Positions 14,623 to 64,000 of a stretch of 64,000 nt of DNA are shown here, one piece after another. Within the stretch, counting starts at the first letter, position 1. The number at the start of each line of letters is the position of its first letter. Source of the stretch: a virus (Duplodnaviria > Heunggongvirae > Uroviricota > Caudoviricetes); IMG/VR virus record IMGVR_UViG_3300024268_000001, one strand, 5' to 3'. The notes under the pieces are model-generated. The model ran no database searches. It was not told where the DNA came from and was given only the letters and a program-made list of their open reading frames with translations. The translations under genes and the position numbers were made by a program.

Positions 14623-14634
14623 AAAACCCGAATA

Positions 14635-16157: not shown

Positions 16158-16159
16158 TT

Positions 16160-18735: not shown

Positions 18736-18984
18736 GTTAAGTATTATAAAATCATTCACAAATTGCATATTCTGAAATTTGTCATCGAGGTCATACTTTT
18801 TTCCATCCATTTCGACGATTATATCATGTATACCCATTAAATGTGAACTTACGTTATCTTTAACAACTATACCGCCAGCTCTATCATGATGAAGTGTCAT
18901 ACGAATAATTTTTTCAATATGACATTCAATATCTTCTTCATGTAGGCTTTTATATTTGAGTATTACCGGAATCATATTTATCAT
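18718..18984 (-). CDS. hypothetical small protein
   Basis: 88-aa ORF. Confidence 0.4.
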   Translation of the reverse strand: MINMIPVILKYKSLHEEDIECHIEKIIRMTLHHDRAGGIVVKDNVSSHLMGIHDIIVEMDGKKYDLDDKFQNMQFVNDFIILNSLTKI

Positions 18985-19360
18985 CTAATGCATGTTCGAT
19001 TTCATAAGCTTCCGTTTGATTCTTTACATACATTTGGGCTTTCTGAAAATCTTTTCCGTATTTTTGGTATAAATCGTAAAGCATATCTGTAGCGACATCC
19101 ATACCAGGATGTCTAGTATAAAACTCGTTCAATCTATAATTCGGTTTTAAATTAGTTTCAATGATATATGACATTCCGTGTTCCCACATATTTTCTATAC
19201 GAAAACCATTTCCAATCATTGCCTGTGCATATTCATACGCATGGTCACCAATCATTTTATGGTTTTCGACTATTTCTTTATAATAGCAACAACGCATTAC
19301 GTCAGTTACGTAATCTTTCCAGTCTTCTTTAGTTTTAAAATAATCTAAAAAACTAAGCAT
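18950..19360 (-). CDS. hypothetical protein
   Basis: 136-aa ORF. Confidence 0.45.
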   Translation of the reverse strand: MLSFLDYFKTKEDWKDYVTDVMRCCYYKEIVENHKMIGDHAYEYAQAMIGNGFRIENMWEHGMSYIIETNLKPNYRLNEFYTRHPGMDVATDMLYDLYQKYGKDFQKAQMYVKNQTEAYEIEHALDDKYDSGNTQI

Positions 19361-19361
19361 A

Positions 19362-19718
19362 TTATAAATTGTCCAAAGAATTTAATGTGTTAAAATACTC
19401 GATAAAAGCTCTTCGTTGGTCATCATCACGTAATTTAAATTTTTGAGTACCAATATAGACAGTTTTTGATATATCAATATTCTTTACATCAATTTGAGAC
19501 TTAGACTTTCGGCATTCACCCCAAATTTTATCACATTTACGTTTTGACGGTGGAGCCGGAGTAAAATAAAATCGACTTTTGAAATGAATTTCTAAAGACT
19601 TAGGTGAACCTGAACCAGCTAACTTTTCTCGCCATCGTCTAAATACATCATTCCAATCATATTCCCAGCTAATATCGGAAACCTTATAAATATGTCCATC
19701 TATTTTCAGCTCTACCAT
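19362..19718 (-). CDS. hypothetical protein
   Basis: 118-aa ORF. Confidence 0.45.
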   Translation of the reverse strand: MVELKIDGHIYKVSDISWEYDWNDVFRRWREKLAGSGSPKSLEIHFKSRFYFTPAPPSKRKCDKIWGECRKSKSQIDVKNIDISKTVYIGTQKFKLRDDDQRRAFIEYFNTLNSLDNL

Positions 19719-21410: not shown

Positions 21411-23051
21411 TTAGCGACGACGGCGACGAGAAAGTTCAGCAATAACTGTCGGATCGTTCATCATGTCCGAAAGGCTACGTCCAATAGAAGTATTAGCTTC
21501 AGCCGGTTCCTTAGTCTTGTCAACATTCGGAGTTTCCGGACGAGCTTCAGCCTTAGGTTCATTTACGACTTCTGCTTCGGTCTTTTCAACCTTTGGAGCA
21601 CCGGAAACACCAGCGAGTCGGGCACCGAACATAGAACCGAGAACAGTCTTGAGGTCCATACCGAGAGAATCGGTCAAACCGCTAGAAATCTGAGTAAGCG
21701 TCTTGGTAATATCGCCGGTGAGCTTTGCAGTACCGCTTTCACCGTACATATTGATGTTACCAATCTTTTCCATCGGCTTAGCAACTGCACCAGCGATAGC
21801 CGGGAGCTGTTCGAAATACTTTTCAATAGTCTTGAGCTGCATTTCCTGACGAGCTGCATCACCATACTTCTTCATGGCTTCAGCCTTCTGGTCAAGAGCT
21901 GCTGCTTCTGCAAGACCCTTAGCCTTTACAGCATCAGCTTCAGCTTCACCCTTAGCCTTAGTAGCTGCAGCTTCAGCGAAAGCCTTTTCCTTATCAGCTT
22001 CAGCCTTGGCGATAATTGCCTTAGCTTGCTGCTGCTGGGTAAAGAGTGCTGCTTCAGCTTCCTTCTGCTGCTTATAAAGTTCAGCATCAGAACGCTGCAT
22101 CTGAGCCTGCTTATCGGCTTCAGCCTTCTTCTGAATTTCAGCTTCGAGTTCCTTCTGACGGACAGCTACCATGCGTTCACGAATTTCAATCTGCTTTTCC
22201 TGCTTTGCAACTTCTGCAGCTGCTGCAGTAATATTGATGGTCTTCTGCTGTTCCTGCTTCTGAATTTCATAAGCGGCATCAGCTTCGGCCTTCTTAGTAT
22301 CAGAAATTCGCTTAAGGTCAGCCTTCTTAACTTCGAGGTCGTTCTGCTTCTGAGCGATTTCAAGGTTTGCTGCAACCTGAGCATCGTTTGCTGTCTTCGC
22401 TGCTTCAGCCTGAGCAATCTTCACGTCACGTTCTGCATTTGCTCGAGAAATTGATGCAGCCTTCTGAATTGCTACAGCCTTATCAACACCGAGGTTTTCA
22501 ATTACCTTACCGTCGTCCGAGAAGTTCTGAATATTGAAGGTCTTAACGATAATACCGAGCTTTTCAAGATCTGGAATAGCATTTTCAAGAACCTTCTCAG
22601 AAACCTGCTTTCGGTCCGTAACCATGTCGACAAGATTCATCTGGCCGACAATCTCACGCATATTACCCTCAAGCACGTCAACAATCATCGCCTTAATCTG
22701 TTCAATCGGCTTATTGAGGAAGTTCTGGGCAGCTTTCTTAATTGCTTCAGGTTCATCAGAAATCTTTGCATTAACAACAGCGTCAACTGTTACATTAATG
22801 TAGTCCTTGGTCGGAACTGCCTGCTTAGTCTTGACGTCAATCGGAATCAACTTCAAGCTAAGAACGTCAGCACGTTCAAGGAACGGGATCTTGAAACCGG
22901 CATGCCCGATAATTGTTCGAAGCTGTCGGAAACCCGAAATAATAATTACTTCATCCGGCGCCGCCTTAATATAAGACGTAATGAAGAGGATAACGAGGAA
23001 AAGTACGAGCAGGCCGATACCCGCACCGATGAGGATATTTGAACTAAGCAT
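21411..23051 (-). CDS. flotillin-like SPFH/band-7 domain protein (YqiK-like)
   Basis: N-terminal TM. SPFH-like 'PDEVIIISGFRQLR...' region. Then a long Ala/Glu/Lys/Gln-rich coiled coil (AEAAKTANDAQVAANLEIAQKQNDLEV...). 546 aa. Confidence 0.75.
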   Translation of the reverse strand: MLSSNILIGAGIGLLVLFLVILFITSYIKAAPDEVIIISGFRQLRTIIGHAGFKIPFLERADVLSLKLIPIDVKTKQAVPTKDYINVTVDAVVNAKISDEPEAIKKAAQNFLNKPIEQIKAMIVDVLEGNMREIVGQMNLVDMVTDRKQVSEKVLENAIPDLEKLGIIVKTFNIQNFSDDGKVIENLGVDKAVAIQKAASISRANAERDVKIAQAEAAKTANDAQVAANLEIAQKQNDLEVKKADLKRISDTKKAEADAAYEIQKQEQQKTINITAAAAEVAKQEKQIEIRERMVAVRQKELEAEIQKKAEADKQAQMQRSDAELYKQQKEAEAALFTQQQQAKAIIAKAEADKEKAFAEAAATKAKGEAEADAVKAKGLAEAAALDQKAEAMKKYGDAARQEMQLKTIEKYFEQLPAIAGAVAKPMEKIGNINMYGESGTAKLTGDITKTLTQISSGLTDSLGMDLKTVLGSMFGARLAGVSGAPKVEKTEAEVVNEPKAEARPETPNVDKTKEPAEANTSIGRSLSDMMNDPTVIAELSRRRRR

Positions 23052-27590: not shown

Positions 27591-28688
27591 TTAAAGGATT
27601 TCAAAATACGGTGCATATTTTTCCATGACTTCAATAACCTTCTTGTAATCAATCTTATTAAGATTCTTCGGAAGGTCCATACCGCCCTTGTTAATCAAAT
27701 CGCCACAATTTGCAAAATAAAGAAGCTTCTTTTCTTCACGACAAATTGTTTCCTGCTGAATTACAAGATTAAATTCCTTCTTAGGAAGATACTTCTTGAA
27801 ATTGGAAATATACTTCGTATAAACAGACTTCAATTCTTCAGCATGTTCAGGATCCGTAGTTGCAGAAAGCATCAAAATACCGTTATTGACATATTCAATT
27901 ACTCCAGCACGAGACTGATATGCAAGACCACGCTTTTCTCGAATTTCATGATAAAGCGGAGAAGTCAACTTACCGTTAAGCATTTCAAGGGCAATGACTA
28001 CATACGGATAATCCTTCTTGGAAACCGGCTTCTTACAGATTGCAAAAACAGTTTCTTTTTCAGGAGCCGGAACAGGCATCAAGCTAACCTTATAATCCTT
28101 CTTCCAACGAAGCTTTGTTGTAATTTCAGGCATCTTGGTCAAGAACTTAACCTTTACGCCAGTTGTCTGGCGAGGGCCGACTTCAACAATACGAACAGGT
28201 TTGAAAAGTTCCTTAAAAAGCTTCTTAGCGTCTGCAAGAGTAAAATTCATAATATCTTCAGTCTTGCCAAGAACGAAATCGTTATTGAAATGTTGACGAA
28301 GCAGGTTATGAAGCTTACCTTCTACAGGACGGTTAAATGCATCCAAAATTTCCTGGTAAACAATCTTTTGTTCTTTTTCGAAAACTTCCTTTGTGACATA
28401 AGTATCGAAACCGGTAGTAACACGTTCAATAAGCAACTTCTTCCATTCCGGAGTAAGATACTTATCCATGCCAGTAAAATGAACTACGAGCAAATCTGTG
28501 CTTGTATAGGCATTAAAATCGATGTTATATTTCTGAAAGTCATCAAATTGGTCTTGAATAGTATTCGTAATCAAGTGTTCCATCAAATGATGACAACCAT
28601 GCTGACCATCTTTTTCATAACTAGAACCTGCCTGGAATACGATATACAAGCCAGTCTTCTTAAAAGATTTCTTCTTATAGATATACAT
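27591..28688 (-). CDS. M16 (pitrilysin/insulinase) family peptidase-like protein
   Basis: Inverted zinc motif HxxEH in 'GCHHLMEHL' near the N-terminus. 365 aa, the size of a single M16 domain pair. Confidence 0.6.
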   Translation of the reverse strand: MYIYKKKSFKKTGLYIVFQAGSSYEKDGQHGCHHLMEHLITNTIQDQFDDFQKYNIDFNAYTSTDLLVVHFTGMDKYLTPEWKKLLIERVTTGFDTYVTKEVFEKEQKIVYQEILDAFNRPVEGKLHNLLRQHFNNDFVLGKTEDIMNFTLADAKKLFKELFKPVRIVEVGPRQTTGVKVKFLTKMPEITTKLRWKKDYKVSLMPVPAPEKETVFAICKKPVSKKDYPYVVIALEMLNGKLTSPLYHEIREKRGLAYQSRAGVIEYVNNGILMLSATTDPEHAEELKSVYTKYISNFKKYLPKKEFNLVIQQETICREEKKLLYFANCGDLINKGGMDLPKNLNKIDYKKVIEVMEKYAPYFEIL

Positions 28689-35970: not shown

Positions 35971-37122
35971 TTAGGCTACATTGTCTCGTTTTACGAAAAT
36001 GGTAAATCCAAGGAAACCAATAAAATAGAGAAGTGCCAAAACAAGATATAAAGTATTGTCAGTAAACAAGTTTCCAAGAATAGGTCCCGCAATTCCAGCA
36101 AATCCCCAGGCACTAAGCGTCATAGAGTGAACTGTAGAAAGACAACTATCTCCGAATCTCTTAGCAAGTAAACTTGGCAAACAACTGAATCCTCCGCCGT
36201 AGTTCCATTCAATCATCAAAATACCAGCTACAAGCAAAATCGGATTTTGTGTATAACACAAAAACGCACCAAGAATACCCAAACTTGCAACCCAATGATA
36301 AGCAGCCTTTCTACCAATCGAATCACTAGCCGTACTCATTCCAAATCGACCACCGACATTTGCAACAGCTGTAGCAGCCATAAGTGAAGCGATAGCAGTA
36401 TATCCAGCATTTAAAAACAGGCTCTTTTCCTGAGAAATAAGTGCAAGGCCGCATGTAATGTTGATAAAGAACATAAACCAAATCGAAATATATTCTTTAG
36501 TCAAAAATTTGGCCTTTATAAGAGTCTTATACGGAATAGCAGTATATTTTGTAGAAATATATGCAGGATTAGGTTTATATAGCCATGAAGAGAAACTCAT
36601 TACAACTAAGAAAATCAATCCCATGAGTAAGAATACAACTGGCAACGTAAAGGTTGCAAGCAAATACTCAATCATAGGAGCCGCAACGAACTTTCCCAAT
36701 CCGAAACCGGTAATAGCCAATCCGGAAGCGAGTCCTTTATGATTACTGAAGTTTGCAAGCAGCTGTTTAATTGGTGCCGTATAGCCTATGCCGGTACCGC
36801 AACCCATAAATGAACAGCCGATATAATAAAGTGGTAAAAATCCAGTATAGGTTGCAAACGAAAGTAGCAATAATCCTATTGCAAACAGAATTGTTGAAAC
36901 TATCGCCATTCGTTTCGGGAACATTTCAACGAATCTTCCGAAAACCGCAGCACCCATGCCAAGGAAGAAAATAATCAGAGTAAATCCAATATCAGCTGAG
37001 AATTTCGAAATATCAAAAGTCTCCATGATATTCTTGGCATATTGTGAATAGTTATAAACTGAACCTAAACTGACAGGTAACAAAATACCCGGAATTAAAA
37101 TATTGAGAAATCTATTTGTCAT
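35971..37122 (-). CDS. MFS-type transporter (about 12 TM)
   Basis: 383 aa. Hydrophobic helices are spaced regularly throughout (e.g. LNILIPGILLPVSLGSVY, GFTLIIFFLGMGAAVFG, LVLALLYFIGFLGFTIFV). Confidence 0.7.
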   Translation of the reverse strand: MTNRFLNILIPGILLPVSLGSVYNYSQYAKNIMETFDISKFSADIGFTLIIFFLGMGAAVFGRFVEMFPKRMAIVSTILFAIGLLLLSFATYTGFLPLYYIGCSFMGCGTGIGYTAPIKQLLANFSNHKGLASGLAITGFGLGKFVAAPMIEYLLATFTLPVVFLLMGLIFLVVMSFSSWLYKPNPAYISTKYTAIPYKTLIKAKFLTKEYISIWFMFFINITCGLALISQEKSLFLNAGYTAIASLMAATAVANVGGRFGMSTASDSIGRKAAYHWVASLGILGAFLCYTQNPILLVAGILMIEWNYGGGFSCLPSLLAKRFGDSCLSTVHSMTLSAWGFAGIAGPILGNLFTDNTLYLVLALLYFIGFLGFTIFVKRDNVA

Positions 37123-41671: not shown

Positions 41672-42070
41672 TTACCCAGGTAATTTGTCGATTGCTTCTT
41701 TCACTTCGGCTTCTTTAATTGCTAAACAATACTTTCTGTAATATTCTAAAAAGTCTTCTTTAGATTCGTCATCTACATAATGCATTATAACCGCTGGAAG
41801 AAGAGTCATTTCATCACTGCAAATTTTAAAACTCTGCTCAAGATTTATTATCTCCAGCAATGTACAAAAATTATTAGTCTTTGCAGATTCAATAGCTGCA
41901 TTTTCCGGCGCAGTTACAACAATATTTCCATCAATGTAAAATTTTACTAATTCTTTATAAAGATTACTAACTTCACATGTAATAACTTTGCATTTGGCAA
42001 AATTTAAACACGTGTATTTATTAGTACCAGGTGAAGAATGTAGTAACAGCATATTAATCCAGCTTTTCAA
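41672..42070 (-). CDS. family-C small protein, C-terminus 'EAIDKLPG'
   Basis: 132 aa. Ends 'KEAEVKEAIDKLPG', the same tail as the 57-63 kb array. Confidence 0.5.
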   Translation of the reverse strand: MKSWINMLLLHSSPGTNKYTCLNFAKCKVITCEVSNLYKELVKFYIDGNIVVTAPENAAIESAKTNNFCTLLEIINLEQSFKICSDEMTLLPAVIMHYVDDESKEDFLEYYRKYCLAIKEAEVKEAIDKLPG

Positions 42071-50615: not shown

Positions 50616-51167
50616 TTATTTATCTTCTAAGTTCTGTAACTGCAATTCGATAGTTTCGTAATCGAATGTGCAAGCAAAAGTACAAATATCCGAAGTACCA
50701 TATTCAAGAGAGACATTTTGAAGGTTAGTCAAAATTGCATGCTTGAATTTCATCTTTGACTGAATCTTATTGTCATTGTTTAACGAAACGATTTCAATGG
50801 CGTCGATACAGTCCATACGTAAAAGTTCTTCGCCTTTAAGGCTCTTCTTTCCGCAAGTTTCACCATGACGCATAGCGTCAATCCAACAATAGAAATAATA
50901 AAAATTCTTTAACTCTTCATCAAGCTTGAATTCGACAGTAATAGACTGGAGTTCACGAGCACCAATCGGATTCGGGTGCAACTGACGTTCATGCATATAC
51001 ATGGAAGTAAGCATGGGAATAGACAAATCCGGAATACTGACCGAGCGAACATAGTTGTCAAGAATATGAGTATCTAAGTCGATACCTGTAAAATTAACAA
51101 GATTCGAGAATCGCACCACGAATTTGTTTTTATTAAAATCATTAATACTGGTTGTAATTCCTGCCAT
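50616..51167 (-). CDS. hypothetical protein
   Basis: 183-aa ORF. Confidence 0.5.
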   Translation of the reverse strand: MAGITTSINDFNKNKFVVRFSNLVNFTGIDLDTHILDNYVRSVSIPDLSIPMLTSMYMHERQLHPNPIGARELQSITVEFKLDEELKNFYYFYCWIDAMRHGETCGKKSLKGEELLRMDCIDAIEIVSLNNDNKIQSKMKFKHAILTNLQNVSLEYGTSDICTFACTFDYETIELQLQNLEDK

Positions 51168-54918: not shown

Positions 54919-55230
54919 TTAAAGCTTCTCGATAGCATTATTAGTTCTAAATTTTTCGACAGCGACGGTAAACTTATCATAATTTTCCTTATTATAAAGG
55001 TCCCCGTATTTTGTACCATTCAGAATAACACAATCATTCTTGTTCTTGGTTATCATATACCACGATTTGGTATTATTCATTTGGTCTACTTTAATTTGAA
55101 TAACACCACCTTTTACGATTAAACTCGTAATATCGGTGAATTCCACACGTTTTTGTGAATAACGACCCGTACTTATAAATAGTTCATTTTTCATATTATA
55201 TAATATAACAAACTTAATCCAGTTTGTCAA
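54919..55230 (-). CDS. small protein with a '...NNAIEKL' tail (family-related)
   Basis: The ORF-track start at 55230 is a TTG, inside a TTGACA hexamer. The likely ATG start is at 55194, preceded by TTGACA-N17-TATATT. Confidence 0.45.
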   Translation of the reverse strand: MTNWIKFVILYNMKNELFISTGRYSQKRVEFTDITSLIVKGGVIQIKVDQMNNTKSWYMITKNKNDCVILNGTKYGDLYNKENYDKFTVAVEKFRTNNAIEKL

Positions 55231-55528
55231 TAGCTTTTTCTACGTTATATTTTTCAATATACGGCGAAATCAGGTCTATAAATTCATGTATAGGTTTTGT
55301 TTTGTCAAAATGTATGCTAATATCATTATACATGAAATAGGCTTCAGCTTCTATATCGTTTGGGTCTATCATAATAGATATTCTTTGATGAGTAAATTCA
55401 TCTTCATAACAACAGCCCAAATAACCGTCTGCGTCATTAGCATATATCAATTCTCCGACACTCCACATAACCCGGTGGTTTCTATTAATCATACGTAATT
55501 TTATAGTAGGCGGTCTCTGCATACTCAT
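55214..55528 (-). CDS. small protein with a '...VEKAIDKLD' tail (family-related)
   Basis: A promoter TTTACA-N17-TATATT abuts the ATG, so the mRNA is possibly leaderless. Confidence 0.45.
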   Translation of the reverse strand: MSMQRPPTIKLRMINRNHRVMWSVGELIYANDADGYLGCCYEDEFTHQRISIMIDPNDIEAEAYFMYNDISIHFDKTKPIHEFIDLISPYIEKYNVEKAIDKLD

Positions 55529-55596: not shown

Positions 55597-55923
55597 ATGA
55601 CAAAACCTAAGATTTTAATCTATCATTTTTCGTATGACCCAGAAGAGTTCGATATTGATAGGTTTAATGATTTCGTTATCAGAGAGAATTTGTCAACGGG
55701 TACAGCTTTAGCTGTACCGTTGACTTCTCCAAAATTACGTAGTATTAGGAACAGAATTGCATTTATTCCGCAAAGTCATTTTAATCATAAAGATGTATAT
55801 TTTATGATAGATGACGTAAAATATGAGTTTCCCGGTAAACCGCTTCATGAAATTTATAAAACAATGTCAGAAGCAATATATGAAAAAATAGTAGAATATA
55901 AGCTTTCGGTGTTAAATGGCTAA
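55597..55923 (+). CDS. small protein (family-related, plus-strand block gene 1)
   Basis: 108 aa. C-terminus '...EAIYEKIVEYKLSVLNG'. Confidence 0.5.
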   Translation: MTKPKILIYHFSYDPEEFDIDRFNDFVIRENLSTGTALAVPLTSPKLRSIRNRIAFIPQSHFNHKDVYFMIDDVKYEFPGKPLHEIYKTMSEAIYEKIVEYKLSVLNG

Positions 55924-56257
55924 TATAGTAGCGTTTAGATATACAGAAAAATACAAGCCACTTTTAGGTGGTAAAGAAATCCCAGTAAGTCAAATGAATT
56001 TCAATGACGAAATTCATGCATATTCCAATTTATATAAAGGATATACAACAGTCGCTTTTTGCGGTATAAAGAAATGGGCCGAGGCTGAATATACTCTTTA
56101 TTATTATGTCAAATGGTTTGCTACTGAAGAGATAAGATTGAGCTGGGACGATAATTGCTATGTCATTTATGATGGTGTCAAATATACTACTGTAGAAAAA
56201 CTGTATGCCGCGATAGAAAATAAGAAAAATCTAGCAATACTTGATACTTACCTATAA
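55916..56257 (+). CDS. small protein (family-related, '...KLYAAIENKKNLAILDTYL')
   Basis: 113 aa. 8-nt overlap with the upstream gene. Confidence 0.5.
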   Translation: MANIVAFRYTEKYKPLLGGKEIPVSQMNFNDEIHAYSNLYKGYTTVAFCGIKKWAEAEYTLYYYVKWFATEEIRLSWDDNCYVIYDGVKYTTVEKLYAAIENKKNLAILDTYL

Positions 56258-56335: not shown

Positions 56336-56914
56336 TTAAATTGCGTCAGTACCAGAACGATTTTCGATAATCTTGAAGATTGCTTCAAGCTTCGGTTTTA
56401 AAGTTTCCTCTGCCTCGTCGAAATCTTCAGCCATATACGGAATCATTTCCTTGATGGCTTCTGTAACTTTAGCACGGATAGAATCCTCTTTTTCTATAAC
56501 TTCTGTTTCGCCCCAACCTGGGTCATAGGTTCCGAAATCACGTCCATCCCAGCTTGGTTCTTCGCCAGTATAGCGAACTTCGACTTCGATTGAATTACCG
56601 TCACCGCCTGTAGAATCATACTGCTCATCGAAATCCTTAACAAAACCAGGAAGGATCTCTTCGATTTTGGCGACTTCTTCCTTTGTAACGCCCAAGCGAC
56701 AAGTCAAATCAAAAGACTTCTTAAGCGGATTACCATGATAATCCAGCAATTTATCAATATAGATAGGAACTTTTACTGTGTCATCATTATAATGTTCACA
56801 GACATATCCGTTATTTTCCAAAATAATCAAAGATTCGCTTACTTTCATTATAACCTCATTTTTATTATTTATAGCATTGACGAAAAGTGAATCTCTTGCT
56901 ATATTTAGTAACAT
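56336..56914 (-). CDS. hypothetical acidic protein (192 aa)
   Basis: Lone minus-strand ORF between the two plus-strand blocks. Confidence 0.5.
   Translation of the reverse strand: MLLNIARDSLFVNAINNKNEVIMKVSESLIILENNGYVCEHYNDDTVKVPIYIDKLLDYHGNPLKKSFDLTCRLGVTKEEVAKIEEILPGFVKDFDEQYDSTGGDGNSIEVEVRYTGEEPSWDGRDFGTYDPGWGETEVIEKEDSIRAKVTEAIKEMIPYMAEDFDEAEETLKPKLEAIFKIIENRSGTDAI
56877..56905 (+). promoter_or_regulatory. sigma70-like promoter (TTGACG-N17-TATATT) for the array operon
   Basis: Sequence caTTGACGaaaagtgaatctcttgcTATATTtagtaacATG. The -35 region resembles the conserved GTTGACGAAAGT element. Confidence 0.55.
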
Positions 56915-57194
56915 GACACGAAATACGCAAAATACAATTTCAACTATCTGGATTTTTCTTGCATCATTCGTATTTACCTTTATGGTAGGCTGGATTGTTT
57001 ATGAAATGATTGAAAAATCTCCAGATATTGATTATACGAAGAGTTATAGTGTCGAAGAAGTACAGAAGCTTGTTGATGAAAAAGTTACTAATGTAACCTG
57101 TGGAGTAATCAATAATGAAATTCTGTGTATCTATACTAATCACAAAACTTCTCGTAATCCGGTATTTTGTACTGTTAAATGGAATGGTAAATAA
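56913..57194 (+). CDS. small membrane protein (1 TM), first gene of the array operon
   Basis: 'TISTIWIFLASFVFTFMVGWIVY'. The ORF-track start at 56877 is the TTG of the -35 hexamer. The ATG at 56913 is preferred. Confidence 0.5.
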   Translation: MTRNTQNTISTIWIFLASFVFTFMVGWIVYEMIEKSPDIDYTKSYSVEEVQKLVDEKVTNVTCGVINNEILCIYTNHKTSRNPVFCTVKWNGK

Positions 57195-57203: not shown

Positions 57204-57491
57204 ATGGTACCTCTCAAATATACAATCGGAATTCTGGCAATTTATGTAGCCTTGTTCATAATTCTTGGTTTTATAAGTCTGCCGACACTTTTATTGGTGT
57301 TAGGTATAATGTTCGTTATTTCGACAATTATCTATGTTGTCATACTCATTGAAGAAAGGATTTGGACATATTCGCTTATCTGGGACAATCTTATTGGATA
57401 TGCCGCAATGGCCTACGGTATCGTATTCTTCCTTCTTCCGATTATCGTCCTTAATTGCATCGAAGACAGAATAGAACGTAACGAAAGATGA
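57204..57491 (+). CDS. small membrane protein (3 TM)
   Basis: 'IGILAIYVALFIILGFISLPTLLLVLGIMFVISTIIYVVILI' and 'GYAAMAYGIVFFLLPIIVL'. Confidence 0.55.
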   Translation: MVPLKYTIGILAIYVALFIILGFISLPTLLLVLGIMFVISTIIYVVILIEERIWTYSLIWDNLIGYAAMAYGIVFFLLPIIVLNCIEDRIERNER

Positions 57492-57492: not shown

Positions 57493-57822
57493 ATGATTAA
57501 TGTTATTTTTACAAATGACGGATATACACAACAACATGATGTTGCTGAAATTGATAACGTCAATATAGACGAACATCCTAGTTTTGTAGAAGCATGTGAG
57601 CAAAAAGACATCGTTAATAATACCATGATAACTCTTACATGGAGATCTTCAGATTATCATGGATTATATGTTTTAAAGCTTGGAACATTTCCGCTTTATA
57701 AGGCATATTTAGAAATTGACGGAAAGAAATATATGTATACCGACATAATGAAAAATATTGAAAAATTCAAAGCCAGGATTGAACAGGAAAAAGTTAAACT
57801 TGCATTGGAGACATTAGCATGA
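57493..57822 (+). CDS. array family member 1 (conserved C-terminal helix)
   Basis: Ends '...YTDIMKNIEKFKARIEQEKVKLALETLA'. Its stop overlaps the next ATG. Confidence 0.6.
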   Translation: MINVIFTNDGYTQQHDVAEIDNVNIDEHPSFVEACEQKDIVNNTMITLTWRSSDYHGLYVLKLGTFPLYKAYLEIDGKKYMYTDIMKNIEKFKARIEQEKVKLALETLA

Positions 57823-58106
57823 TTAAGTTTACACTTGATGGTAGAAACTATGAAATCGAATCCATGCAAGATTTTTCTCTTTGGGTTCATTACGAATCAA
57901 AACATAGAAAACGAGAAAACTATATTAAAGCAGAAGTACGTCCTGTAGGTTATGAAGCACATCATGTTTTTGAACTGAGAAACGAAGATAGTATACAGAT
58001 TGACGATAAAAAGTTTGACCTTCCATATATTTGTGAACATTTTGATTTGATTAAATCTAAAATTTTACATAATCTTGAACTTAAATGCCTGGATAATTTA
58101 GCATGA
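57819..58106 (+). CDS. array family member 2
   Basis: Starts MIKF. Ends '...ICEHFDLIKSKILHNLELKCLDNLA'. Confidence 0.6.
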   Translation: MIKFTLDGRNYEIESMQDFSLWVHYESKHRKRENYIKAEVRPVGYEAHHVFELRNEDSIQIDDKKFDLPYICEHFDLIKSKILHNLELKCLDNLA

Positions 58107-58387
58107 TTAAACTTATTAGAGAATATCATTATTCGCGTTCAGATGACCATTATGTAGTAAAGCAACTGTTTGGTTTTGAAAAATCTAGTAATGGCATAAG
58201 TCTTTTCTTTGAAGACCAAATGGGAAAAAACCAAATGATAAATACAGCCGATACAGAAAAAACAGAAACAAAACTGTATATAAACGACATTCTTTATACA
58301 AACAAAGATATTATGTGGAAATTTGATAAAATTTCTGCACTGTTAACTCAAGATATAAATTTGACAGCTATTGAGTCTCTTCCATAG
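58103..58387 (+). CDS. array family member 3
   Basis: Starts MIKL. Ends '...KDIMWKFDKISALLTQDINLTAIESLP'. Confidence 0.6.
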   Translation: MIKLIREYHYSRSDDHYVVKQLFGFEKSSNGISLFFEDQMGKNQMINTADTEKTETKLYINDILYTNKDIMWKFDKISALLTQDINLTAIESLP

Positions 58388-58395
58388 AGGAATAT

Positions 58396-58764
58396 ATGGA
58401 TTTTGAAAAAATAAAGAAAAATGAATGTTTTTCGAAACAGATGATTCTGGATAATCCAAATCAGCCATATATTTTTAGATATGATAAATGGGATAATTAT
58501 GACCTGATTATACCAATAGAAACCAATGATTCTACTACCCATATACTTGGTGCGGTTTTCCATTATGAAGATGAAAATACATATTTATACAACGGTTGTT
58601 CTTATATAAATCTTCTCGGTGTAAATCTTAAGAGTATGAAATTGTTTACTCCGCAAAAAGAAATCGAATATGATGCATCTGTTGATGATTATCATGATTT
58701 TAGAGATAAAGTTATTATGGTGTTAAATCAATTCGAATCCATAGAGGCCGTGGATAGATTATGA
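58396..58764 (+). CDS. array family member 4
   Basis: Ends '...FRDKVIMVLNQFESIEAVDRL'. ATGA junction. Confidence 0.6.
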   Translation: MDFEKIKKNECFSKQMILDNPNQPYIFRYDKWDNYDLIIPIETNDSTTHILGAVFHYEDENTYLYNGCSYINLLGVNLKSMKLFTPQKEIEYDASVDDYHDFRDKVIMVLNQFESIEAVDRL

Positions 58765-59108
58765 AGTTCATTGTAAAAATCGGTAATAATATAGCCATAA
58801 CATATGAGATGATAGCTCTCGAAGGCATATTTATCGAAAGGCCGAGTACTAAATTTACAAATTCACAACAGGACATGATTGATTACAAAACAATCTATAT
58901 CCATTTTCATTATTCAAAGAGAAACAACCGCGAAGTACATGCCAATATAACTATGCCTATTGGTGAATTTCTTGACGGTAATAAAATGATGTATATAGAT
59001 GCTGGAAAAGAACAGATTTATTACAAAGATATTGTTGCAAATCCGGCAAAAGCAGCAGTCAGGATAAATAACCTCATTTTACTTGATACTATCGAGGCTT
59101 TGCCATAA
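58761..59108 (+). CDS. array family member 5
   Basis: Ends '...YYKDIVANPAKAAVRINNLILLDTIEALP'. Confidence 0.6.
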   Translation: MKFIVKIGNNIAITYEMIALEGIFIERPSTKFTNSQQDMIDYKTIYIHFHYSKRNNREVHANITMPIGEFLDGNKMMYIDAGKEQIYYKDIVANPAKAAVRINNLILLDTIEALP

Positions 59109-59118
59109 CAGTATTACT

Positions 59119-59406
59119 ATGTTAATAGAGCTTTATCCAAATAAAAAATATAGAGTGCCATCTAAAATTAAGCACGTCAATAAAATTGTTGCCGAAAAAA
59201 CGGAACCTCTTTCATTTATTGATTTTATAGATACAGATGATAAACCGCATATCATGGTTATCGGTACAGAATCTATAATAGTAGTTGACTATGGACCGGT
59301 TGAATTACCTTTAATATTTAGTTATAAAGATATATTAGAAAATCCGGAAGCTATTACAGCAAAACTACATAATTTAGAAAACGAAGCTGTACTTGACAGA
59401 TTATAG
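59119..59406 (+). CDS. array family member 6
   Basis: Start taken at ATG 59119 (MLIELYP...). Ends '...YKDILENPEAITAKLHNLENEAVLDRL'. Confidence 0.55.
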   Translation: MLIELYPNKKYRVPSKIKHVNKIVAEKTEPLSFIDFIDTDDKPHIMVIGTESIIVVDYGPVELPLIFSYKDILENPEAITAKLHNLENEAVLDRL

Positions 59407-59409
59407 CCA

Positions 59410-59438
59410 TTGACAAAAATGAGATTTTTTGCTATATT
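59410..59438 (+). promoter_or_regulatory. internal sigma70-like promoter (TTGACA-N17-TATATT)
   Basis: Sequence ccaTTGACAaaaatgagattttttgcTATATTaaaaccATG. Confidence 0.5.
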
Positions 59439-59444
59439 AAAACC

Positions 59445-59762
59445 ATGATTAGACTTATCATGGAATCAAAACCTCATGAACAATGGGAACAGCATAGGCA
59501 GTTTAAAGTAAAATCTGCCGTTCTTATTAAGCAAAAAACTCATAGTCAATATGAGTCGGATTTGATTGTCCAATATACGTCGTTTAATAATAGTTCTTAT
59601 AATAGTTATGGATTTGAAGCTCAATTTGAAAAAGAAACGCATAGATTATTGCTTGAAATCGGCGGCGAAGTTTACGGGCATGATGATTTGATTAAAAACG
59701 TCGATAAGTATAATGCATTGCTGGAAAACGAAGCTATAAAAGAAGCAATAGACAGATTATGA
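59445..59762 (+). CDS. array family member 7
   Basis: Starts MIRL. Ends '...HDDLIKNVDKYNALLENEAIKEAIDRL'. Confidence 0.6.
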   Translation: MIRLIMESKPHEQWEQHRQFKVKSAVLIKQKTHSQYESDLIVQYTSFNNSSYNSYGFEAQFEKETHRLLLEIGGEVYGHDDLIKNVDKYNALLENEAIKEAIDRL

Positions 59763-60055
59763 TTCGAATAATATACAGACAATATAATGAAAAAACCAAG
59801 AAATGGGAAATGAATTTAGCATTTCCCGTTTATCAAGCGGAATTGTCTGTTAATACTAATAAATTAATCGATATTAAATATAAAAATTATTACGGTCATG
59901 ATTTCTTAACAACATTCAAGAATTCTAATGATACACAGATGACGCTTGAATTTGATGATGAAGAATATAGTATTCTTGATATGATTAATAATTTTGATAA
60001 AGTAAAGTCAAAAGTTTATAACGAATACCTACATGATATTTTGGAAGCATTATGA
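59759..60055 (+). CDS. array family member 8
   Basis: Starts MIRI. Ends '...ILDMINNFDKVKSKVYNEYLHDILEAL'. Confidence 0.6.
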   Translation: MIRIIYRQYNEKTKKWEMNLAFPVYQAELSVNTNKLIDIKYKNYYGHDFLTTFKNSNDTQMTLEFDDEEYSILDMINNFDKVKSKVYNEYLHDILEAL

Positions 60056-60390
60056 TTAAAGTTGTCAGAAAAATGACATATGATAATGAACCCACGACCA
60101 CGACATTTTATGTTCTTGGTCCTTATGTTTTTCGTACAGTAGTAAGTTCTAGACAATATATTTGTTTAGGCTATACTGATATTAAAAGAGAAATTAAAGA
60201 GCCGTATGAACATAAACCAAATTATTTTATTTTAGGAATTGTTACCAATTCCTCAGGTAAAAATTATAATACATGGCTTGAAACAGACGCTGGCACGTTT
60301 ACTGACCAATATATAGATAAACATCTGGATAAAGTCAACGCTATATTGACTCAGGAATCCAACAAAGAAATTCTTGATTGCCTACCATGA
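60052..60390 (+). CDS. array family member 9
   Basis: Starts MIKV. Ends '...DKHLDKVNAILTQESNKEILDCLP'. Confidence 0.6.
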   Translation: MIKVVRKMTYDNEPTTTTFYVLGPYVFRTVVSSRQYICLGYTDIKREIKEPYEHKPNYFILGIVTNSSGKNYNTWLETDAGTFTDQYIDKHLDKVNAILTQESNKEILDCLP

Positions 60391-60686
60391 TTAGTGTGAC
60401 CCAATATAAGAAAGATAATACGTTCCATTCAAAAGTGGATTTGCCGACCTATACTAATAAAAATTGGAATCCTTATTTAAGTAATAATCCGTATCATCAA
60501 TATAGGCTTTATATAGCATATGTTTCGCCAGTAGGTAGACTTGAATCCGTATATCTGGATCCTCGAAGTATATTAAGAATCGGCGACCAAACATATGATT
60601 TTAATTATATGCAAAAAAATATGGACCGTATCAATACGTTGATAGAACAGGAAATAACTCGAGAAGCTATAGAGAAACTGCCATGA
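60387..60686 (+). CDS. array family member 10
   Basis: Start at the ATGA overlap (MISVTQY...). Ends '...NMDRINTLIEQEITREAIEKLP'. Confidence 0.6.
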   Translation: MISVTQYKKDNTFHSKVDLPTYTNKNWNPYLSNNPYHQYRLYIAYVSPVGRLESVYLDPRSILRIGDQTYDFNYMQKNMDRINTLIEQEITREAIEKLP

Positions 60687-61003
60687 TTAAACTTGCTATT
60701 TATCATTTAGACGAAGGTATAGACGCTAAAATAATAGAATGGGGAGAAATACAAGAAATCGGTTATGGCGATTTTTATTTTTGTTATAGAGTGAATAATG
60801 GAAATCATCCGCAATATATCTATTTAACAAATACTGAACATAGATATGTTTCAGTTTTTATTAACGAAAAAGAATATATTATTACAAATCCTCACAGCCC
60901 ATCTGGACCCACAATTAGCCGACTTTTAAAAATTAAAGATAAAATTAATGCTTTAATAGTACAAGAAAATATTAAAACTGCAATCGATTCTTTGCCGGGG
61001 TAA
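60683..61003 (+). CDS. array family member 11
   Basis: Starts MIKL. Ends '...IKDKINALIVQENIKTAIDSLPG'. Confidence 0.6.
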   Translation: MIKLAIYHLDEGIDAKIIEWGEIQEIGYGDFYFCYRVNNGNHPQYIYLTNTEHRYVSVFINEKEYIITNPHSPSGPTISRLLKIKDKINALIVQENIKTAIDSLPG

Positions 61004-61005
61004 TA

Positions 61006-61353
61006 ATGGTTGAAATTATAACAAAACGACATACCAATTCAAAAGATTATATCAATCGTAAAGTTTCTGGGCTTTATTTAACTGCTAGAGATGAATATTC
61101 AGATGGCCAAATAGATAAAATGAACGGTATCGTAGTAACTGCAACATTTAAATATGTTGATAATGACCAAAAGAGTTATTCATGGATTCTTGGGCATTTT
61201 AAATATTGGACAGGTACAGCAATTCATAATTATACTAATTATATTAAAGTAGGTAAACTAAGTTTTTGGTATAAAGATATAATTGAAAATGTTGATAGAA
61301 TCAATGCACTCATTCAGCAAGAATATTTAAAAGACGCATTGGAGAAATTATAA
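61006..61353 (+). CDS. array family member 12
   Basis: Ends '...YKDIIENVDRINALIQQEYLKDALEKL'. Confidence 0.6.
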   Translation: MVEIITKRHTNSKDYINRKVSGLYLTARDEYSDGQIDKMNGIVVTATFKYVDNDQKSYSWILGHFKYWTGTAIHNYTNYIKVGKLSFWYKDIIENVDRINALIQQEYLKDALEKL

Positions 61354-61739
61354 TGAGCGAAAACTTGATATACATGGAATATATGGGAAGTCAACATGTA
61401 TTTGTTCCAGATAATGAAATAGTTAAGTGTATTGAAAAGAGTTCTGACATTACGGATATATATTTGCCTGGAAAATTTTATAATTTATCTAATAACAAAA
61501 AGTGGTTAGTTTATGACCCTCTTTTAATAGGTACTGAGCTATATTTAAATATATGGCGTGATTGGACATACCATGACGGTTCATTTGAAATAAAATTTGT
61601 TCATAAATCGGCAGATGATGATGACCTGTATGCTAAAATTAGAGATGCTAACAAAAAAGAATTTCTTATCTGCATTAACAAACTGTATATTCATTATAAG
61701 AATAAAGAAACTTTGGATATTATAGAAAAACTACCATGA
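61353..61739 (+). CDS. array family member 13
   Basis: 128 aa. Ends '...KNKETLDIIEKLP'. Confidence 0.55.
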   Translation: MSENLIYMEYMGSQHVFVPDNEIVKCIEKSSDITDIYLPGKFYNLSNNKKWLVYDPLLIGTELYLNIWRDWTYHDGSFEIKFVHKSADDDDLYAKIRDANKKEFLICINKLYIHYKNKETLDIIEKLP

Positions 61740-62020
61740 TTGTACTTTACGACGGTTTTACAAGATTACGTGCTCGAAATGTAACTGTTACGGCATTACA
61801 TGATAATGCGCCGGATCCAAGATATTTTTATAAAGTTGATTTTTATGACATAGGAAATCTTCATAAAGATTCTTTTACTATTTCCATTTATGACGCTGAT
61901 GCATATATTCAAATTAATAATACCAAATATACTTATTGTGACTTGGAACATGATTTATCCAATATACAAGTAGAATTGGAAAAAGAAAATATTTTACATG
62001 CGATTGAGAATTTACCATGA
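61736..62020 (+). CDS. array family member 14
   Basis: Starts MIVL. Ends '...DLSNIQVELEKENILHAIENLP'. Confidence 0.6.
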   Translation: MIVLYDGFTRLRARNVTVTALHDNAPDPRYFYKVDFYDIGNLHKDSFTISIYDADAYIQINNTKYTYCDLEHDLSNIQVELEKENILHAIENLP

Positions 62021-62298
62021 TTAAAGTTTATCATAAAGGTAATAAAATATCAATTTCTGAAATTACTAAGTTTGAAAAGTATCTTGAGGTTGATACTGGT
62101 AAATATTATTTTGAAGTTAAATATTTTCCTGAACGTTCGTATGTACAGTCGAGCTGTATTTTTTCAGAATCTAAACAGTTTAACTATATTGAAATTAACA
62201 GAGAACGATTTAACTATAAAAAGATGCTTGCACATTTTGAAAAAGTAAAAGCACTTATAGAACAAGAAAAAATCGTAAAAGCTATTGATGCATTATAA
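62017..62298 (+). CDS. array family member 15
   Basis: Starts MIKV. Ends '...MLAHFEKVKALIEQEKIVKAIDAL'. Confidence 0.6.
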   Translation: MIKVYHKGNKISISEITKFEKYLEVDTGKYYFEVKYFPERSYVQSSCIFSESKQFNYIEINRERFNYKKMLAHFEKVKALIEQEKIVKAIDAL

Positions 62299-62302
62299 GG
62301 GT

Positions 62303-62330
62303 TGACAATTACTTTATCGTTTACTATATT
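62303..62330 (+). promoter_or_regulatory. near-consensus sigma70 promoter (TTGACA-N16-TATATT)
   Basis: Sequence ggGTTGACAattactttatcgtttacTATATT, followed by RBS 'aaaggaacaatc' and ATG 62357. Confidence 0.6.
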
Positions 62331-62356
62331 AACGGTATAAACAAAAAGGAACAATC

Positions 62357-62800
62357 ATGTTTAAAGTAATTTATACCAAGGCTGTTGATGGAAACGGACG
62401 TTATGCATATGTCGGTGGCGACAAGATGACATATGAATATGCGGACGTACCTGATGAAGAAACTTTCCAAAAGCTTAAGAACGAAATTGTCGAAGAACTT
62501 AAGAAGGAAGATTCCCCGCTTGTAAAGGCTTCGTTCTATAACGAAAAGGGAGTTCCTTTTGAAATCAGTTTCGACGATATTAACGAAGAAGATGAATATT
62601 GTCTCATCGATACTGTCAATAACATGACGCTTAAGAAGCTTGAAGAACGTACCGACGGTATGACCAAGGGACAATGGGAACTGTTTAACGGTTCTTATGA
62701 CGATAACCTTAAGATTCCGGAAGATCTTGCCGAAGCGGATGAAAATTCTGACCCGCTTTATGATTATCTTAAGAGCGTTGGACCGACACTTTTGAAGTAA
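62357..62800 (+). CDS. strongly acidic protein (147 aa), unrelated to the array family
   Basis: About 30% D/E. Higher GC than flanking genes. Has its own promoter and RBS. Confidence 0.6.
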   Translation: MFKVIYTKAVDGNGRYAYVGGDKMTYEYADVPDEETFQKLKNEIVEELKKEDSPLVKASFYNEKGVPFEISFDDINEEDEYCLIDTVNNMTLKKLEERTDGMTKGQWELFNGSYDDNLKIPEDLAEADENSDPLYDYLKSVGPTLLK

Positions 62801-62812
62801 GGAGAAACTACC

Positions 62813-63112
62813 ATGATTCATGTATATGACAACTGTAAACTATATACCAATGTTATAAATCCAAAGCTGGAATATGTTACAGACAGTATCTGGCCGCCTT
62901 ATAATCCCTATTTCTGGATAACTTTCAAGGAAAGCCCTAATGCACAATTTAATAGGGTAGACTTCCGAGATTTCACTGAGGAAATGAATAACAATTATAT
63001 CGAAATCAATAACCAGCGATTCAAATATAAAGATATAAAAGAAAACCTGGAATATATCCAAGCCCTAATCGAAAACGATATTAACCAGGAAGCTATCGAG
63101 TCCCTCCCATGA
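62813..63112 (+). CDS. array family member 16
   Basis: Ends '...YKDIKENLEYIQALIENDINQEAIESLP'. Confidence 0.6.
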   Translation: MIHVYDNCKLYTNVINPKLEYVTDSIWPPYNPYFWITFKESPNAQFNRVDFRDFTEEMNNNYIEINNQRFKYKDIKENLEYIQALIENDINQEAIESLP

Positions 63113-63399
63113 TTGAAGTCTACGATACAAATAATAAAAAATCAGAAGTAATAGAAGTCATAAGGCTGGATAAACTGACTGACAAATGCGTTAAACCTCC
63201 CTATGTCTATTTTTCTCTAATGTATAAAGACTCTTCTAACCAGAAGGGCTTTACTATATTCTCTATAGGCAGTTCTGAAAATTACCTGTCTATTAACGGA
63301 AGAAAATTCAAATATAAAGATATGATAGAAAAAGAGGGCCTCATAGACGCCCTCCTTACCCAAGAAGAAACCCTTGAAACACTAAATAAGCTACCCTAG
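63109..63399 (+). CDS. array family member 17
   Basis: Starts MIEV. Ends '...YKDMIEKEGLIDALLTQEETLETLNKLP'. Elevated GC. Confidence 0.6.
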   Translation: MIEVYDTNNKKSEVIEVIRLDKLTDKCVKPPYVYFSLMYKDSSNQKGFTIFSIGSSENYLSINGRKFKYKDMIEKEGLIDALLTQEETLETLNKLP

Positions 63400-63713
63400 A
63401 GCTTCTTTAGGGCCCTTTCTATATCATACTTGTTAAATATACTATAGGCATTTTCGGGGTGCCTTATGGCCTTCTTCATGATTGCCATGGGTATGTTCTT
63501 AAACTGGAACGCCAACATCTCATTAGTAGTCCCGATACAGACAGCCTGCTCTTCTTCTATATTCCGAAAATATACGGTAGGGGTAGAATCATAAATGTAC
63601 AGACATACCGAAAATCCGTCCTTCCGGTAATCTACAGGATAGGGCTCGTATGTGCTCATAGGGACATATCCACATCTAACCACCAAATCGCGAACCTTCT
63701 TAAGCGGATCCAT
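63396..63713 (-). CDS. family-related small protein on the minus strand ('...KYDIERALKKL')
   Basis: 105 aa, convergent with the array. Elevated GC. Confidence 0.5.
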   Translation of the reverse strand: MDPLKKVRDLVVRCGYVPMSTYEPYPVDYRKDGFSVCLYIYDSTPTVYFRNIEEEQAVCIGTTNEMLAFQFKNIPMAIMKKAIRHPENAYSIFNKYDIERALKKL

Positions 63714-64000
63714 TATCCCAATACCTCCAAAGCCTTTTCTGTCTCATATTTGTGAAAATCAAAAGTCAGCCTCTTGAATTCCTCAGGGTCGTCTATACAT
63801 ACATTGGTTTCGATATACCCCCTGTACATCTTCCCGTTCCAGATAATAAACTCGTAATCGGTAATATAGTAAAGCCCCTCCCATACGTCTTCGAAAATTT
63901 CGTGGACATATGTGAATCCTACGGCTCGCCTTTCCAAATCAATATCGGTAATATCTACAAATTCCCTAACGGCATTCTTGGAATGATAATGCGGGGTAAT
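63713..64000 (-). CDS. family-related small protein ('...YETEKALEVLG'), 5' end beyond the window
   Basis: The ORF-track start at 63937 is a TTG. The reading frame stays open to position 64000. Confidence 0.45.
   Translation of the reverse strand: MTPHYHSKNAVREFVDITDIDLERRAVGFTYVHEIFEDVWEGLYYITDYEFIIWNGKMYRGYIETNVCIDDPEEFKRLTFDFHKYETEKALEVLG

Follow-up and report, generated by a model that had tools for sequence, protein, structure and literature searches.

Small, non-essential open reading frames (ORFs) of unknown function accumulate between the core genes of T4-type phages in so-called hyperplastic regions, where they are shuffled as modules through PeSL cassettes (Arbiol et al. 2010, PMC2839356; PMC4122927). 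Here we describe a locus for which this is the closest described phenomenon, an array of 17 head-to-tail plus-strand ORFs of 93-128 amino acids (aa) at positions 57493-63399 of a 64,000-nucleotide stretch of Caudoviricetes DNA (IMG/VR record IMGVR_UViG_3300024268_000001), the whole of which we call the window. Both kinds of locus place small accessory ORFs between core blocks and differ between close relatives, both carry strong promoters of a σ70-like early type, and in both, whole cassettes are inserted, deleted or replaced with endpoints in short repeated regulatory sequences. In contrast to the mixed, unrelated ORFans of T4-type regions, the array is built from one paralogous family, and its genes are joined mostly by ATGA overlaps, whereas PeSL cassettes of promoter and stem-loop flank individual ORFs. 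Its insertion and deletion endpoints are the ribosome-binding site (RBS) and stop/start junction, which also encodes the protein tail, and its 6.5 kb hold three promoter-like sites with no associated stem-loops at the array, so that the test for PeSL was negative. The phage itself is not close to any T4-type genome, as the NAD-dependent ligase encoded in the window shares ~33% identity or less with its best-ranked phage matches in GenBank, and the array DNA matches no phage there. The general type of locus is familiar to phage genomicists; new here is one undescribed family at 17-33 copies, without PeSL and with a dual-coded junction that is both protein tail and recombination site. Our literature search found no description of this array.

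Other systems offer partial parallels. The MGF110, MGF360 and MGF505 genes of African swine fever virus (ASFV) and the amplified K3L gene of poxviruses form tandem sets of diverged paralogs that vary in copy number between isolates, evolve faster than the core and have a presumed or demonstrated role in host range and immune evasion. This parallel is looser, as the viruses, hosts and folds differ, there is no sequence relationship, and the array shows no recent amplification. Large Firmicutes phages carry host-takeover modules, such as gp37-60 of SPO1 and the terminal-repeat genes of Herelleviridae, in which strong host-type promoters drive a head-to-tail series of about 20 or more small early proteins, but those modules encode mostly unrelated proteins and the array a single family. 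Poly-immunity loci, reportedly treated by Zhang and colleagues in 2012, are said to be tandem diverged α+β paralogs thought to neutralise different protein partners. The array resembles them as a tandem set of small, strongly diverged α+β paralogs and differs in that poly-immunity loci are cellular, lie with toxin genes and encode proteins of named Imm/SUKH families; the array matched none of the immunity families in Pfam or NCBIfam, and its neighbours, which are membrane proteins, an acidic ORF and more small paralogs, showed no toxin domain. PH-like domains, a β-sandwich with a C-terminal capping helix, also stand among the closest known systems.

A sequence-only reading of this DNA had proposed 17 paralogous small genes. 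All 17 ORFs are present, and 15 proved demonstrable paralogs, scoring E values of 4e-5 to 8e-15 in leave-one-out profile searches; the ORFs at 58396-58764 and 61353-61739 failed this test (E 3.2 and 3.7) and also failed against a 97-member profile built without their own orthologs (E 2.4 and 6.1). Because their ratios of nonsynonymous to synonymous substitution (ω) are 0.28 and 0.07, these two are real genes whose family membership is not demonstrable. The demonstrable members are soluble, mostly acidic proteins of 93-115 aa. Nearly all detectable similarity lies in the last 30 aa, which by themselves gave leave-one-out E<1e-5 in 13 of 17 members, while the body alone reached E<0.01 in just 2 of 17. 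The column profile of the tail (Y/F70, Y72, D74, I75, N78, D/E80, K/R81, I82, A84, L85, I86, Q/N88 and E89, ending in A94, I/L95, E/D96, L98 and P99) agrees with the C-terminal consensus proposed earlier, of which EAIExLP is the final part. A compositional artefact as the source of this motif was ruled out, with real tails scoring 20-44 bits and their shuffles (200 per tail) at most 16 bits. The body carries a conserved core of its own (L19, F34, I36, F/Y38, aromatic in 96%, F/Y51 in 91%, Y62, I63, I65, N/D/G66 and Y/F70 in 89%), most other body positions are highly variable between paralogs, and the shared N-terminus is limited to M-I-(K)-(V/I), coinciding with the overlapping ATGATT junction. 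The profiles and the split between body and tail thus bear out the proposed repertoire of diversified, uncharacterised paralogs, in which the body varies and the C-terminal helix is conserved.

The features of the locus are listed below, with E from the leave-one-out profile search and ω measured against the ortholog in L007, one of several related loci in other metagenome contigs (handles beginning with L).

54919-55194, minus strand: outlying member of the family, 91 aa, accompanied by a separate promoter-like site (55230-55202); scores E 3.9e-5 with the 17-member profile.
56877-56905, plus strand: promoter-like site P1, TTGACG-17-TATATT, TG-extended, at the operon head; kept in L007 (2484) and L009 (6186).
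56913-57194, plus strand: leader gene 1, 93 aa, one predicted transmembrane (TM) segment by hydropathy (TM 11-29); ω 0.19.
57204-57491, plus strand: leader gene 2, 95 aa, polytopic membrane protein with at least two TM segments; ω 0.18.
57493-57822, plus strand: family member 1, 109 aa; E 4.4e-10; ω 0.29.
57819-58106, plus strand: family member 2, 95 aa, ATGA overlap with the upstream gene; E 4.1e-5.
58103-58387, plus strand: family member 3, 94 aa, ATGA overlap; E 2.5e-10; ω 0.29.
58396-58764, plus strand: array ORF 4, 122 aa, membership not demonstrable; E 3.2; ω 0.28.
58761-59108, plus strand: family member 5, 115 aa, ATGA overlap; E 1.9e-7; ω 0.29.
59119-59406, plus strand: family member 6, 95 aa; E 1.3e-5; orthologs 95-96 aa.
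59410-59438, plus strand: promoter-like site P2, TTGACA-17-TATATT, TG-extended, in the 38-nt gap; kept in L001 (1209), L007 (5261) and L009 (8716).
59445-59762, plus strand: family member 7, 105 aa; E 2.5e-11; ω 0.49.
59759-60055, plus strand: family member 8, 98 aa, ATGA overlap; E 9.1e-9; ω 0.10.
60052-60390, plus strand: family member 9, 112 aa, ATGA overlap; E 2.6e-10; ω 0.49.
60387-60686, plus strand: family member 10, 99 aa, ATGA overlap; E 1.5e-10; ω 0.18.
60683-61003, plus strand: family member 11, 106 aa, ATGA overlap; E 2.2e-6; ω 0.44.
61006-61353, plus strand: family member 12, 115 aa; E 6e-13; ω 0.53.
61353-61739, plus strand: array ORF 13, 128 aa, membership not demonstrable; E 3.7; ω 0.07.
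61736-62020, plus strand: family member 14, 94 aa, ATGA overlap; E 9.4e-8; ω 0.29.
62017-62298, plus strand: family member 15, 93 aa, ATGA overlap; E 1.4e-14; 100% identical to its L001 ortholog.
62302-62330, plus strand: promoter-like site P3, TTGACA-17-TATATT; kept in L001 (4113), L007 (8162) and L009 (11620).
62357-62800, plus strand: non-family acidic ORF, 147 aa, isoelectric point (pI) 4.3; no family match; ω 0.16.
62801-62812, plus strand: deletion joint, from comparison with L007, L009 and L001.
62813-63112, plus strand: family member 16, 99 aa, basis of the structure model; E 8e-15.
63109-63399, plus strand: family member 17, 96 aa, ATGA overlap, the last gene of the array; E 5.8e-12; ω 0.14.
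63394-63412, plus strand: weak terminator-like hairpin, 8-bp stem with 4 GC pairs; consensus match only.

Two of the starts were corrected, to ATG 59119 instead of TTG 59083 and to ATG 60387 instead of TTG 60378, and are most likely the true ones because of the junction sequences and of 95-99 aa orthologs in relatives. Overlapping stop/start junctions had been described as near-universal; they account for 11 of the 15 family-to-family junctions (10 ATGA overlaps and one TAATG), and the other four are gaps of 2, 8, 10 and 38 nt. The array falls into three sub-operons, each with a conserved σ70-like promoter motif at its head, and it is split between genes 15 and 16 by the acidic 147-aa ORF, which has its own promoter-like site. 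The hairpin at 63394-63412 separates the array from convergent genes of a second family, family B. Hydropathy upheld the earlier assignment of the two leading proteins as membrane proteins; leader gene 1 has no match in Pfam, and leader gene 2 has a sub-threshold match to PF06541 (21.6 bits against a cut-off of 25.9). Array ORF 13 is 95-96% identical to its orthologs. Against 97-member profiles from which their orthologs had been removed, family member 2 scored E 2.6e-9 and the outlying member E 5.4e-6. Divergent from the first promoter of the array lies an acidic 192-aa ORF (56336-56914, minus strand, pI 4.4) without family match, whose counterpart has the same length in L011 but only 170 aa in both L007 and L009.

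We then compared the family with known proteins. The earlier reading had matched it to nothing, and this stood: scans of the members against Pfam, PHROGs, NCBIfam and PADLOC gave nothing above any cut-off, PDB sequence searches with the family profile and with member 2 gave no match, and Foldseek against PDB and BFVD gave nothing at E<0.1. No sequence or structural match to characterised anti-defence inhibitors (anti-CRISPR, anti-restriction and similar) was found, and tblastn with one member found nothing in 50,697 phage records. Among 5.8 billion proteins, a word-indexed search picked up 34, all unnamed, and HMMER, run in full over 1.84 billion cluster representatives, picked up only 64, all of 61-124 aa and roughly two diverged arrays' worth. 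A related-locus search with one member found nothing in 185,579 reference genomes and a single IMG/VR contig, from the same metagenome as locus L003. Look-ups located members on dozens of contigs. On these searches the family is previously undescribed and confined to one lineage of ~300-420-kb rumen myophages. A weak match to the helix part of the profile only (E 0.01) was seen at the C-terminus of a 132-aa ORF at 41672-42070 on the minus strand, which could be chance or a very distant relative.

An AlphaFold2 (AF2) model of member 16, built from a 41-sequence family alignment, was confident (predicted local distance difference test score, pLDDT, 90.4; predicted template modelling score, pTM, 0.82) and places strands at residues 2-5, 15-24, 32-39, 46-51, 62-65 and 68-70 ahead of a helix at 72-96. 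In this model the helix, with pLDDT 95-97, is predicted to close a single compact α+β domain. Averaged over the family, the 25-residue helix is amphipathic over residues 72-92, with I75, L79, I82 and I86 sharing one face, and could pack on the conserved aromatic and aliphatic residues of the sheet. A canonical coiled coil was rejected, since placing the conserved hydrophobics at a/d would put Glu 89 at a core position and the hydrophobic moment collapses in the C-terminal third of the helix. The polar positions D/E80 (72%), K/R81 (67%) and Q/N88 (80%) are conserved off the hydrophobic face and constitute the main evidence still favouring a shared interaction surface.

The sequence-only reading had seen the helix as a plug by which every member docks on one shared partner, and named as candidates a host hub protein, a chaperone and a receptor for virion packaging or secretion. 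In a fuller form of this model, a protease or the two leader membrane proteins could also be the partner, and the variable body would serve as cargo or recognise targets, which would make the family an adaptor repertoire. We regard this common docking as unlikely. It would account for the concentration of sequence conservation in the last 30 residues and for the three polar positions off the hydrophobic face, it fits the two conserved membrane proteins that head the array every time, and the tail is under tighter constraint (ω 0.21) than the body (ω 0.34). However, a free plug is not required by a model that sets the helix, by its hydrophobic face, within a compact domain at pLDDT 95-97; the body has matching conserved core residues, and nothing found here points to a common partner. 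Two further counts against docking come from the DNA of the tail: the final 4-5 residues overlie the RBS and start of the following gene, which constrain them, and the unrelated family B has a similar tail, LEVLG, from its Shine-Dalgarno sequence.

The constraint at the nucleotide level is visible in codon choice. Where the conserved acidic residue of the tail is Glu, its codon is GAG in 44 cases and GAA in 19; for all other Glu residues of these genes the counts are 64 GAG and 503 GAA (odds ratio 18, p = 2e-23). Across 95 junctions, positions -11 to -9 before the next start are G in 63%, A in 64% and G in 56%, which places a Shine-Dalgarno core at the usual distance from that start; spacer and ATGA overlap come from the codons for L-P together with the stop, and the junction, GAGAAACTRCCATGATTAAA, is the best-conserved DNA repeat in the array. 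Because of the GAG bias and the position of the Shine-Dalgarno sequence over the tail codons, the terminal E-x-L-P, and with it part of EAIExLP, reflects in part a nucleotide-level constraint of translational coupling. The claim of a protein motif therefore stands for the 20-25 residues upstream of the dual-coded end, which are conserved at the protein level, and is weakened for the end itself, partly set by the RBS and start of the next gene.

Family B shows the same effect independently of the array. Its proteins, encoded on the minus strand, have tails ending in LEVLG, encoded by TTGGAGGTATTGGGATAATG, with a perfect GGAGGT Shine-Dalgarno sequence for the next gene, and hhalign found no relationship between the two families (probability 0.9%). 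Since LEVLG spells a Shine-Dalgarno sequence, similar tails can arise without a shared protein partner. Family B is a second paralogous family of 104-130 aa proteins, convergent with the array and present in ~8 copies in relatives (window 63396-63713 and 63713-63937, both minus strand, continuing past the window end; L001 10581-13464). A single superfamily uniting the array with the flanking small genes (55214-55528, 55597-55923, 55916-56257, 63396-63713 and 63713-63937) was dropped: none reached E<0.01 against the family profile despite similar-looking tails, a likeness due to the embedded Shine-Dalgarno sequence. Three of these (55214-55528, minus; 55597-55923, plus; 55916-56257, plus) have the helix-like tails AIDKLD, LSVLNG and ILDTYL, score E 0.02-0.8, and each lie near a copy of the promoter motif. 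The junction thus combines protein tail, RBS, overlapping stop/start and recombination site in one short sequence. Translational coupling can in this way create an apparent protein motif and drive cassette turnover, a caution for motif inference in compact genomes.

We next considered turnover among relatives, whose core proteins are 92-99% identical while the array copy number spans 17-33:

Window: 17 array ORFs (15 demonstrable).
L007: 21 members; array fully inside the locus.
L005: at least 28 members; array extends past the locus end.
L001: at least 29 members; array extends past the locus end.
L009: 33 members; complete array at 6802-19393.

The window differs from its relatives by whole-cassette insertions and deletions. 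A 90-aa member lies between 59108 and 59119 in L001 and L007 and is absent from the window, and 1.3-6.7 kb of relatives' genes are missing between 62800 and 62813. At this deletion joint the microhomology GAGAAACTA is common to the RBS after the 147-aa ORF and the tail/RBS before the 99-aa member; other joints share AAGGA between two ribosome-binding sites or GCCAT at the L-P/L-A tail codons. All indel endpoints examined fall in repeated junction or RBS sequences, and thus the coupling junction is also a substrate for cassette gain and loss. The acidic 147-aa ORF is found in L007, L009 and L012 and is absent from L001; it behaves as an independent cassette and has a weak, sub-threshold match to DUF5750 only. 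The L009 array also holds the acidic ORF, a small membrane protein and a 259-aa gene of the His_biosynth family. This HisA/HisF-type gene, 259-260 aa, sits mid-array in L009 (13825-14604), L010 (13822-14604) and L012 (6761-7540) and is missing from the window. The membrane protein, the third small one (108 aa, MYLLYTAAAF..., L009 12121-12447), follows the acidic ORF and has orthologs at L001 4178-4504 and L007 8671-8997; it was lost from the window. A membrane protein is therefore encoded at the start of, or within, at least two of the sub-operons headed by a promoter.

Copy numbers of 17-33 among close relatives suggest a fast-evolving host-interaction toolkit. They could alternatively be a by-product of unequal recombination at the junctions, a genomic accordion in which most copies lack a specific function and the tails mainly reflect the coupling signal. 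Such an accordion would explain why indels end in junction repeats, why the junction is the best-conserved DNA repeat and why the tail is dual-coded, and the window genome appears to manage without up to 16 copies found in relatives. We nevertheless consider it very unlikely, because the sequences bear marks of retention: every one of the 17 ORFs has ω of 0.07-0.53, intra-genome paralogs are old, positional orthologs persist in L005 despite saturated synonymous divergence, and conservation reaches ~25 residues upstream of the RBS.

In Nei-Gojobori estimates of ω and of nonsynonymous (dN) and synonymous (dS) divergence between the window and L007, all 17 ORFs were under purifying selection (pooled ω 0.34 for the body and 0.21 for the tail). 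The body had been called variable, and it is divergent between paralogs without being hypervariable between close relatives. Within a genome, paralogs are only 26-50% identical in short local alignments and include no recent duplicates, so the duplications are old and every copy has been kept since. Along the array dS ranged from 0.08 to 0.91, an indication that alleles are exchanged cassette by cassette. Member 1 (57493-57822) had a dS of 0.91 against L007 3095-3424, compared to 0.17-0.33 for its neighbours, suggesting that its cassette was replaced by a more distant allele. Comparisons among relatives, with array identities between L001 and L005 taken from syntenic full-length orthologs, gave the following:

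L001-L007, replication genes: dS 0.19, dN 0.010, ω 0.05, protein identity 95-99%.
L001-L007, array: dS 0.26, dN 0.083, ω 0.33, protein identity 71-95%.
L001-L005, replication genes: dS 0.66, dN 0.046, ω 0.07, identity 92-94% (one 84.5%).
L001-L005, array: dS 1.52 (saturated), dN 0.465, ω 0.31, identity 28-54% (one 70%).

Between L001 and L007 the dN of the array is thus ~8 times that of the adjacent replication genes at similar dS, with gene order partly kept between L001 and L005.

Transcription signals set the array with the non-structural genes. The motif TTGACA-N17-TATATT, with at most one mismatch, occurs 19 times in the window compared to 1.3 expected, a count that no shuffle reached; all 19 copies are co-oriented with the local genes, and they precede the ligase, the nucleotidyltransferase and other non-structural genes, with none between 42.7 and 55.2 kb, the block that contains the tail tube gene. 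Promoters had been proposed at 56877 and 59410; both were recovered as promoter-like sites, joined by a third at 62302. The motif also lies in intergenic array gaps of L001, L005, L007 and L009, where the member proteins of L005 are only ~30-50% identical. Its conservation supports a class of probably real promoters, read by host-type polymerase and presumably active early or midway through infection. Phage-wide, the motif takes the form TT(G/T)AC(A/G)AA..N..TTTnCTATATT, and its sites include 12222-12250, 18688-18716 and 55202-55230, all on the minus strand.

The same distribution bears on whether the members are virion or assembly components, either head-closure/connector-type paralogs or packaged internal or ejection proteins. 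The tail tube gene is ~6 kb away, member 2 scored 19.5 bits against the head-closure profile TIGR01563 gp16_SPP1, and giant phages are reported to package paralogous ejection proteins (PMC5694885), all of which would fit a structural role. That score is below the curated cut-off of 20.6 and comes from one of 16 members scanned, the other 15 giving no match, and identity as a head-closure protein was rejected for want of PDB sequence or fold support. Relevant comparators are the paralogous head proteins of phiKZ/SPN3US-type giant phages and the internal proteins of T4; the T4 proteins are otherwise unrelated to one another, carry a conserved N-terminal capsid-targeting sequence with a prohead-protease cleavage motif, and are expressed late. 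In contrast, the conserved part of the array proteins is C-terminal, they have no N-terminal targeting or cleavage motif, and the σ70-like motif that they have in common with the ligase and nucleotidyltransferase genes is absent from the tail tube block. Copy numbers of 17-33 among phages with 95-99% identical core proteins are, moreover, hard to fit to a stoichiometric role, and we hold a virion function to be highly improbable.

The explanation we favor, and to which we give about even confidence, is that the array is an early-expressed repertoire of small binders that may share a scaffold and differ in their host or competitor targets, acting in host takeover or counter-defence. It is based on the small soluble proteins, their non-structural promoter class, a dN ~8 times that of the core with copies retained, and presence/absence variation between near-identical phages. 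Under such a mechanism, host RNA polymerase would make the proteins early or mid infection, the conserved core positions and C-terminal helix would form the scaffold and the variable positions its surface, and each member's variable surface would recognise a different host or competing-element target in the service of host takeover or counter-defence; array size would then track the hosts and defences met by the phage. Several points weigh against a binder repertoire. The notion is drawn by analogy, gene-wide ω is below 1 in every gene, and a structural role in packing does not by itself explain D/E80, K/R81 and Q/N88. The fold comes from a single confident AF2 model, that of a second array ORF, 58396-58764, being poor (pLDDT 50) with a similar strand-then-helix order, and promoter sites and expression timing are consensus matches only.

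Those three polar positions also allow for an adaptor system, in which the outer face of the helix would dock on a shared machine while the variable β-surface of each member captures a different host protein. This is conceivable and, in our estimate, distinctly improbable; if true, the array would be an F-box-like substrate-receptor repertoire resized by cassette recombination at dual-coded junctions, with a protease, a modifying enzyme or the leader membrane proteins as candidates for the machine. The locus is a good test case: large phages encode many uncharacterised genes, small early phage proteins are the usual source of new host-takeover and anti-defence activities, and here one undescribed family fills 6-12.6 kb of phage genome with each copy kept by selection. 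The cassette subsets of relatives amount to natural deletion mutants, which could be compared with the hosts and defence systems seen in rumen metagenomes. If the members do turn out to bind targets from a shared scaffold, they would also yield new inhibitors of bacterial proteins.

The window is part of a ~410-kb uncultured rumen phage genome, with the array in its accessory portion, and family member 16 was found with identical sequence on a 412,546-bp contig. The relatives' contigs measure 303, 418 and 424 kb and come from European Nucleotide Archive (ENA) and Joint Genome Institute (JGI) metagenome assemblies, with one NCBI record under an AUXO accession; we infer the rumen origin from their sample names. 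A tail tube protein is encoded at 50616-51167 (PHROG 45, E 6e-17), the window also encodes RNA ligase, NAD-dependent DNA ligase and a NadR/NUDIX protein, and in relatives a T4-type clamp loader adjoins the 3' side of the array, which thus sits between the tail tube block and the clamp-loader block. From this gene content, the sizes of the relatives and the lack of a close GenBank phage, the source is an uncultured jumbo myophage. GGAGG-type ribosome-binding sites and TTGACA/TATAxT promoters argue, on general knowledge, against a Bacteroidota host. A tRNA search of the window found no tRNA genes despite a CCA-adding-type nucleotidyltransferase, and Rfam gave no match at gathering thresholds within 54-64 kb. 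Other accessory genes in the window are:

4413-5600: CCA-adding-type nucleotidyltransferase.
6515-7783: RNA ligase.
9052-10170: NadR-like cytidylyltransferase/NUDIX protein.
14635-15504: patatin phospholipase.
17562-18716: NAD-dependent ligase.
21411-23051: SPFH/flotillin protein.
27591-28688: M16 peptidase.
35971-37122: MFS transporter.

The stretch from 58 to 62 kb is the most AT-rich part of the window (29.6-29.7% GC, compared to 29-42% and mostly 34-41% elsewhere), and GC skew flips at the array, in line with the switch of coding strand.

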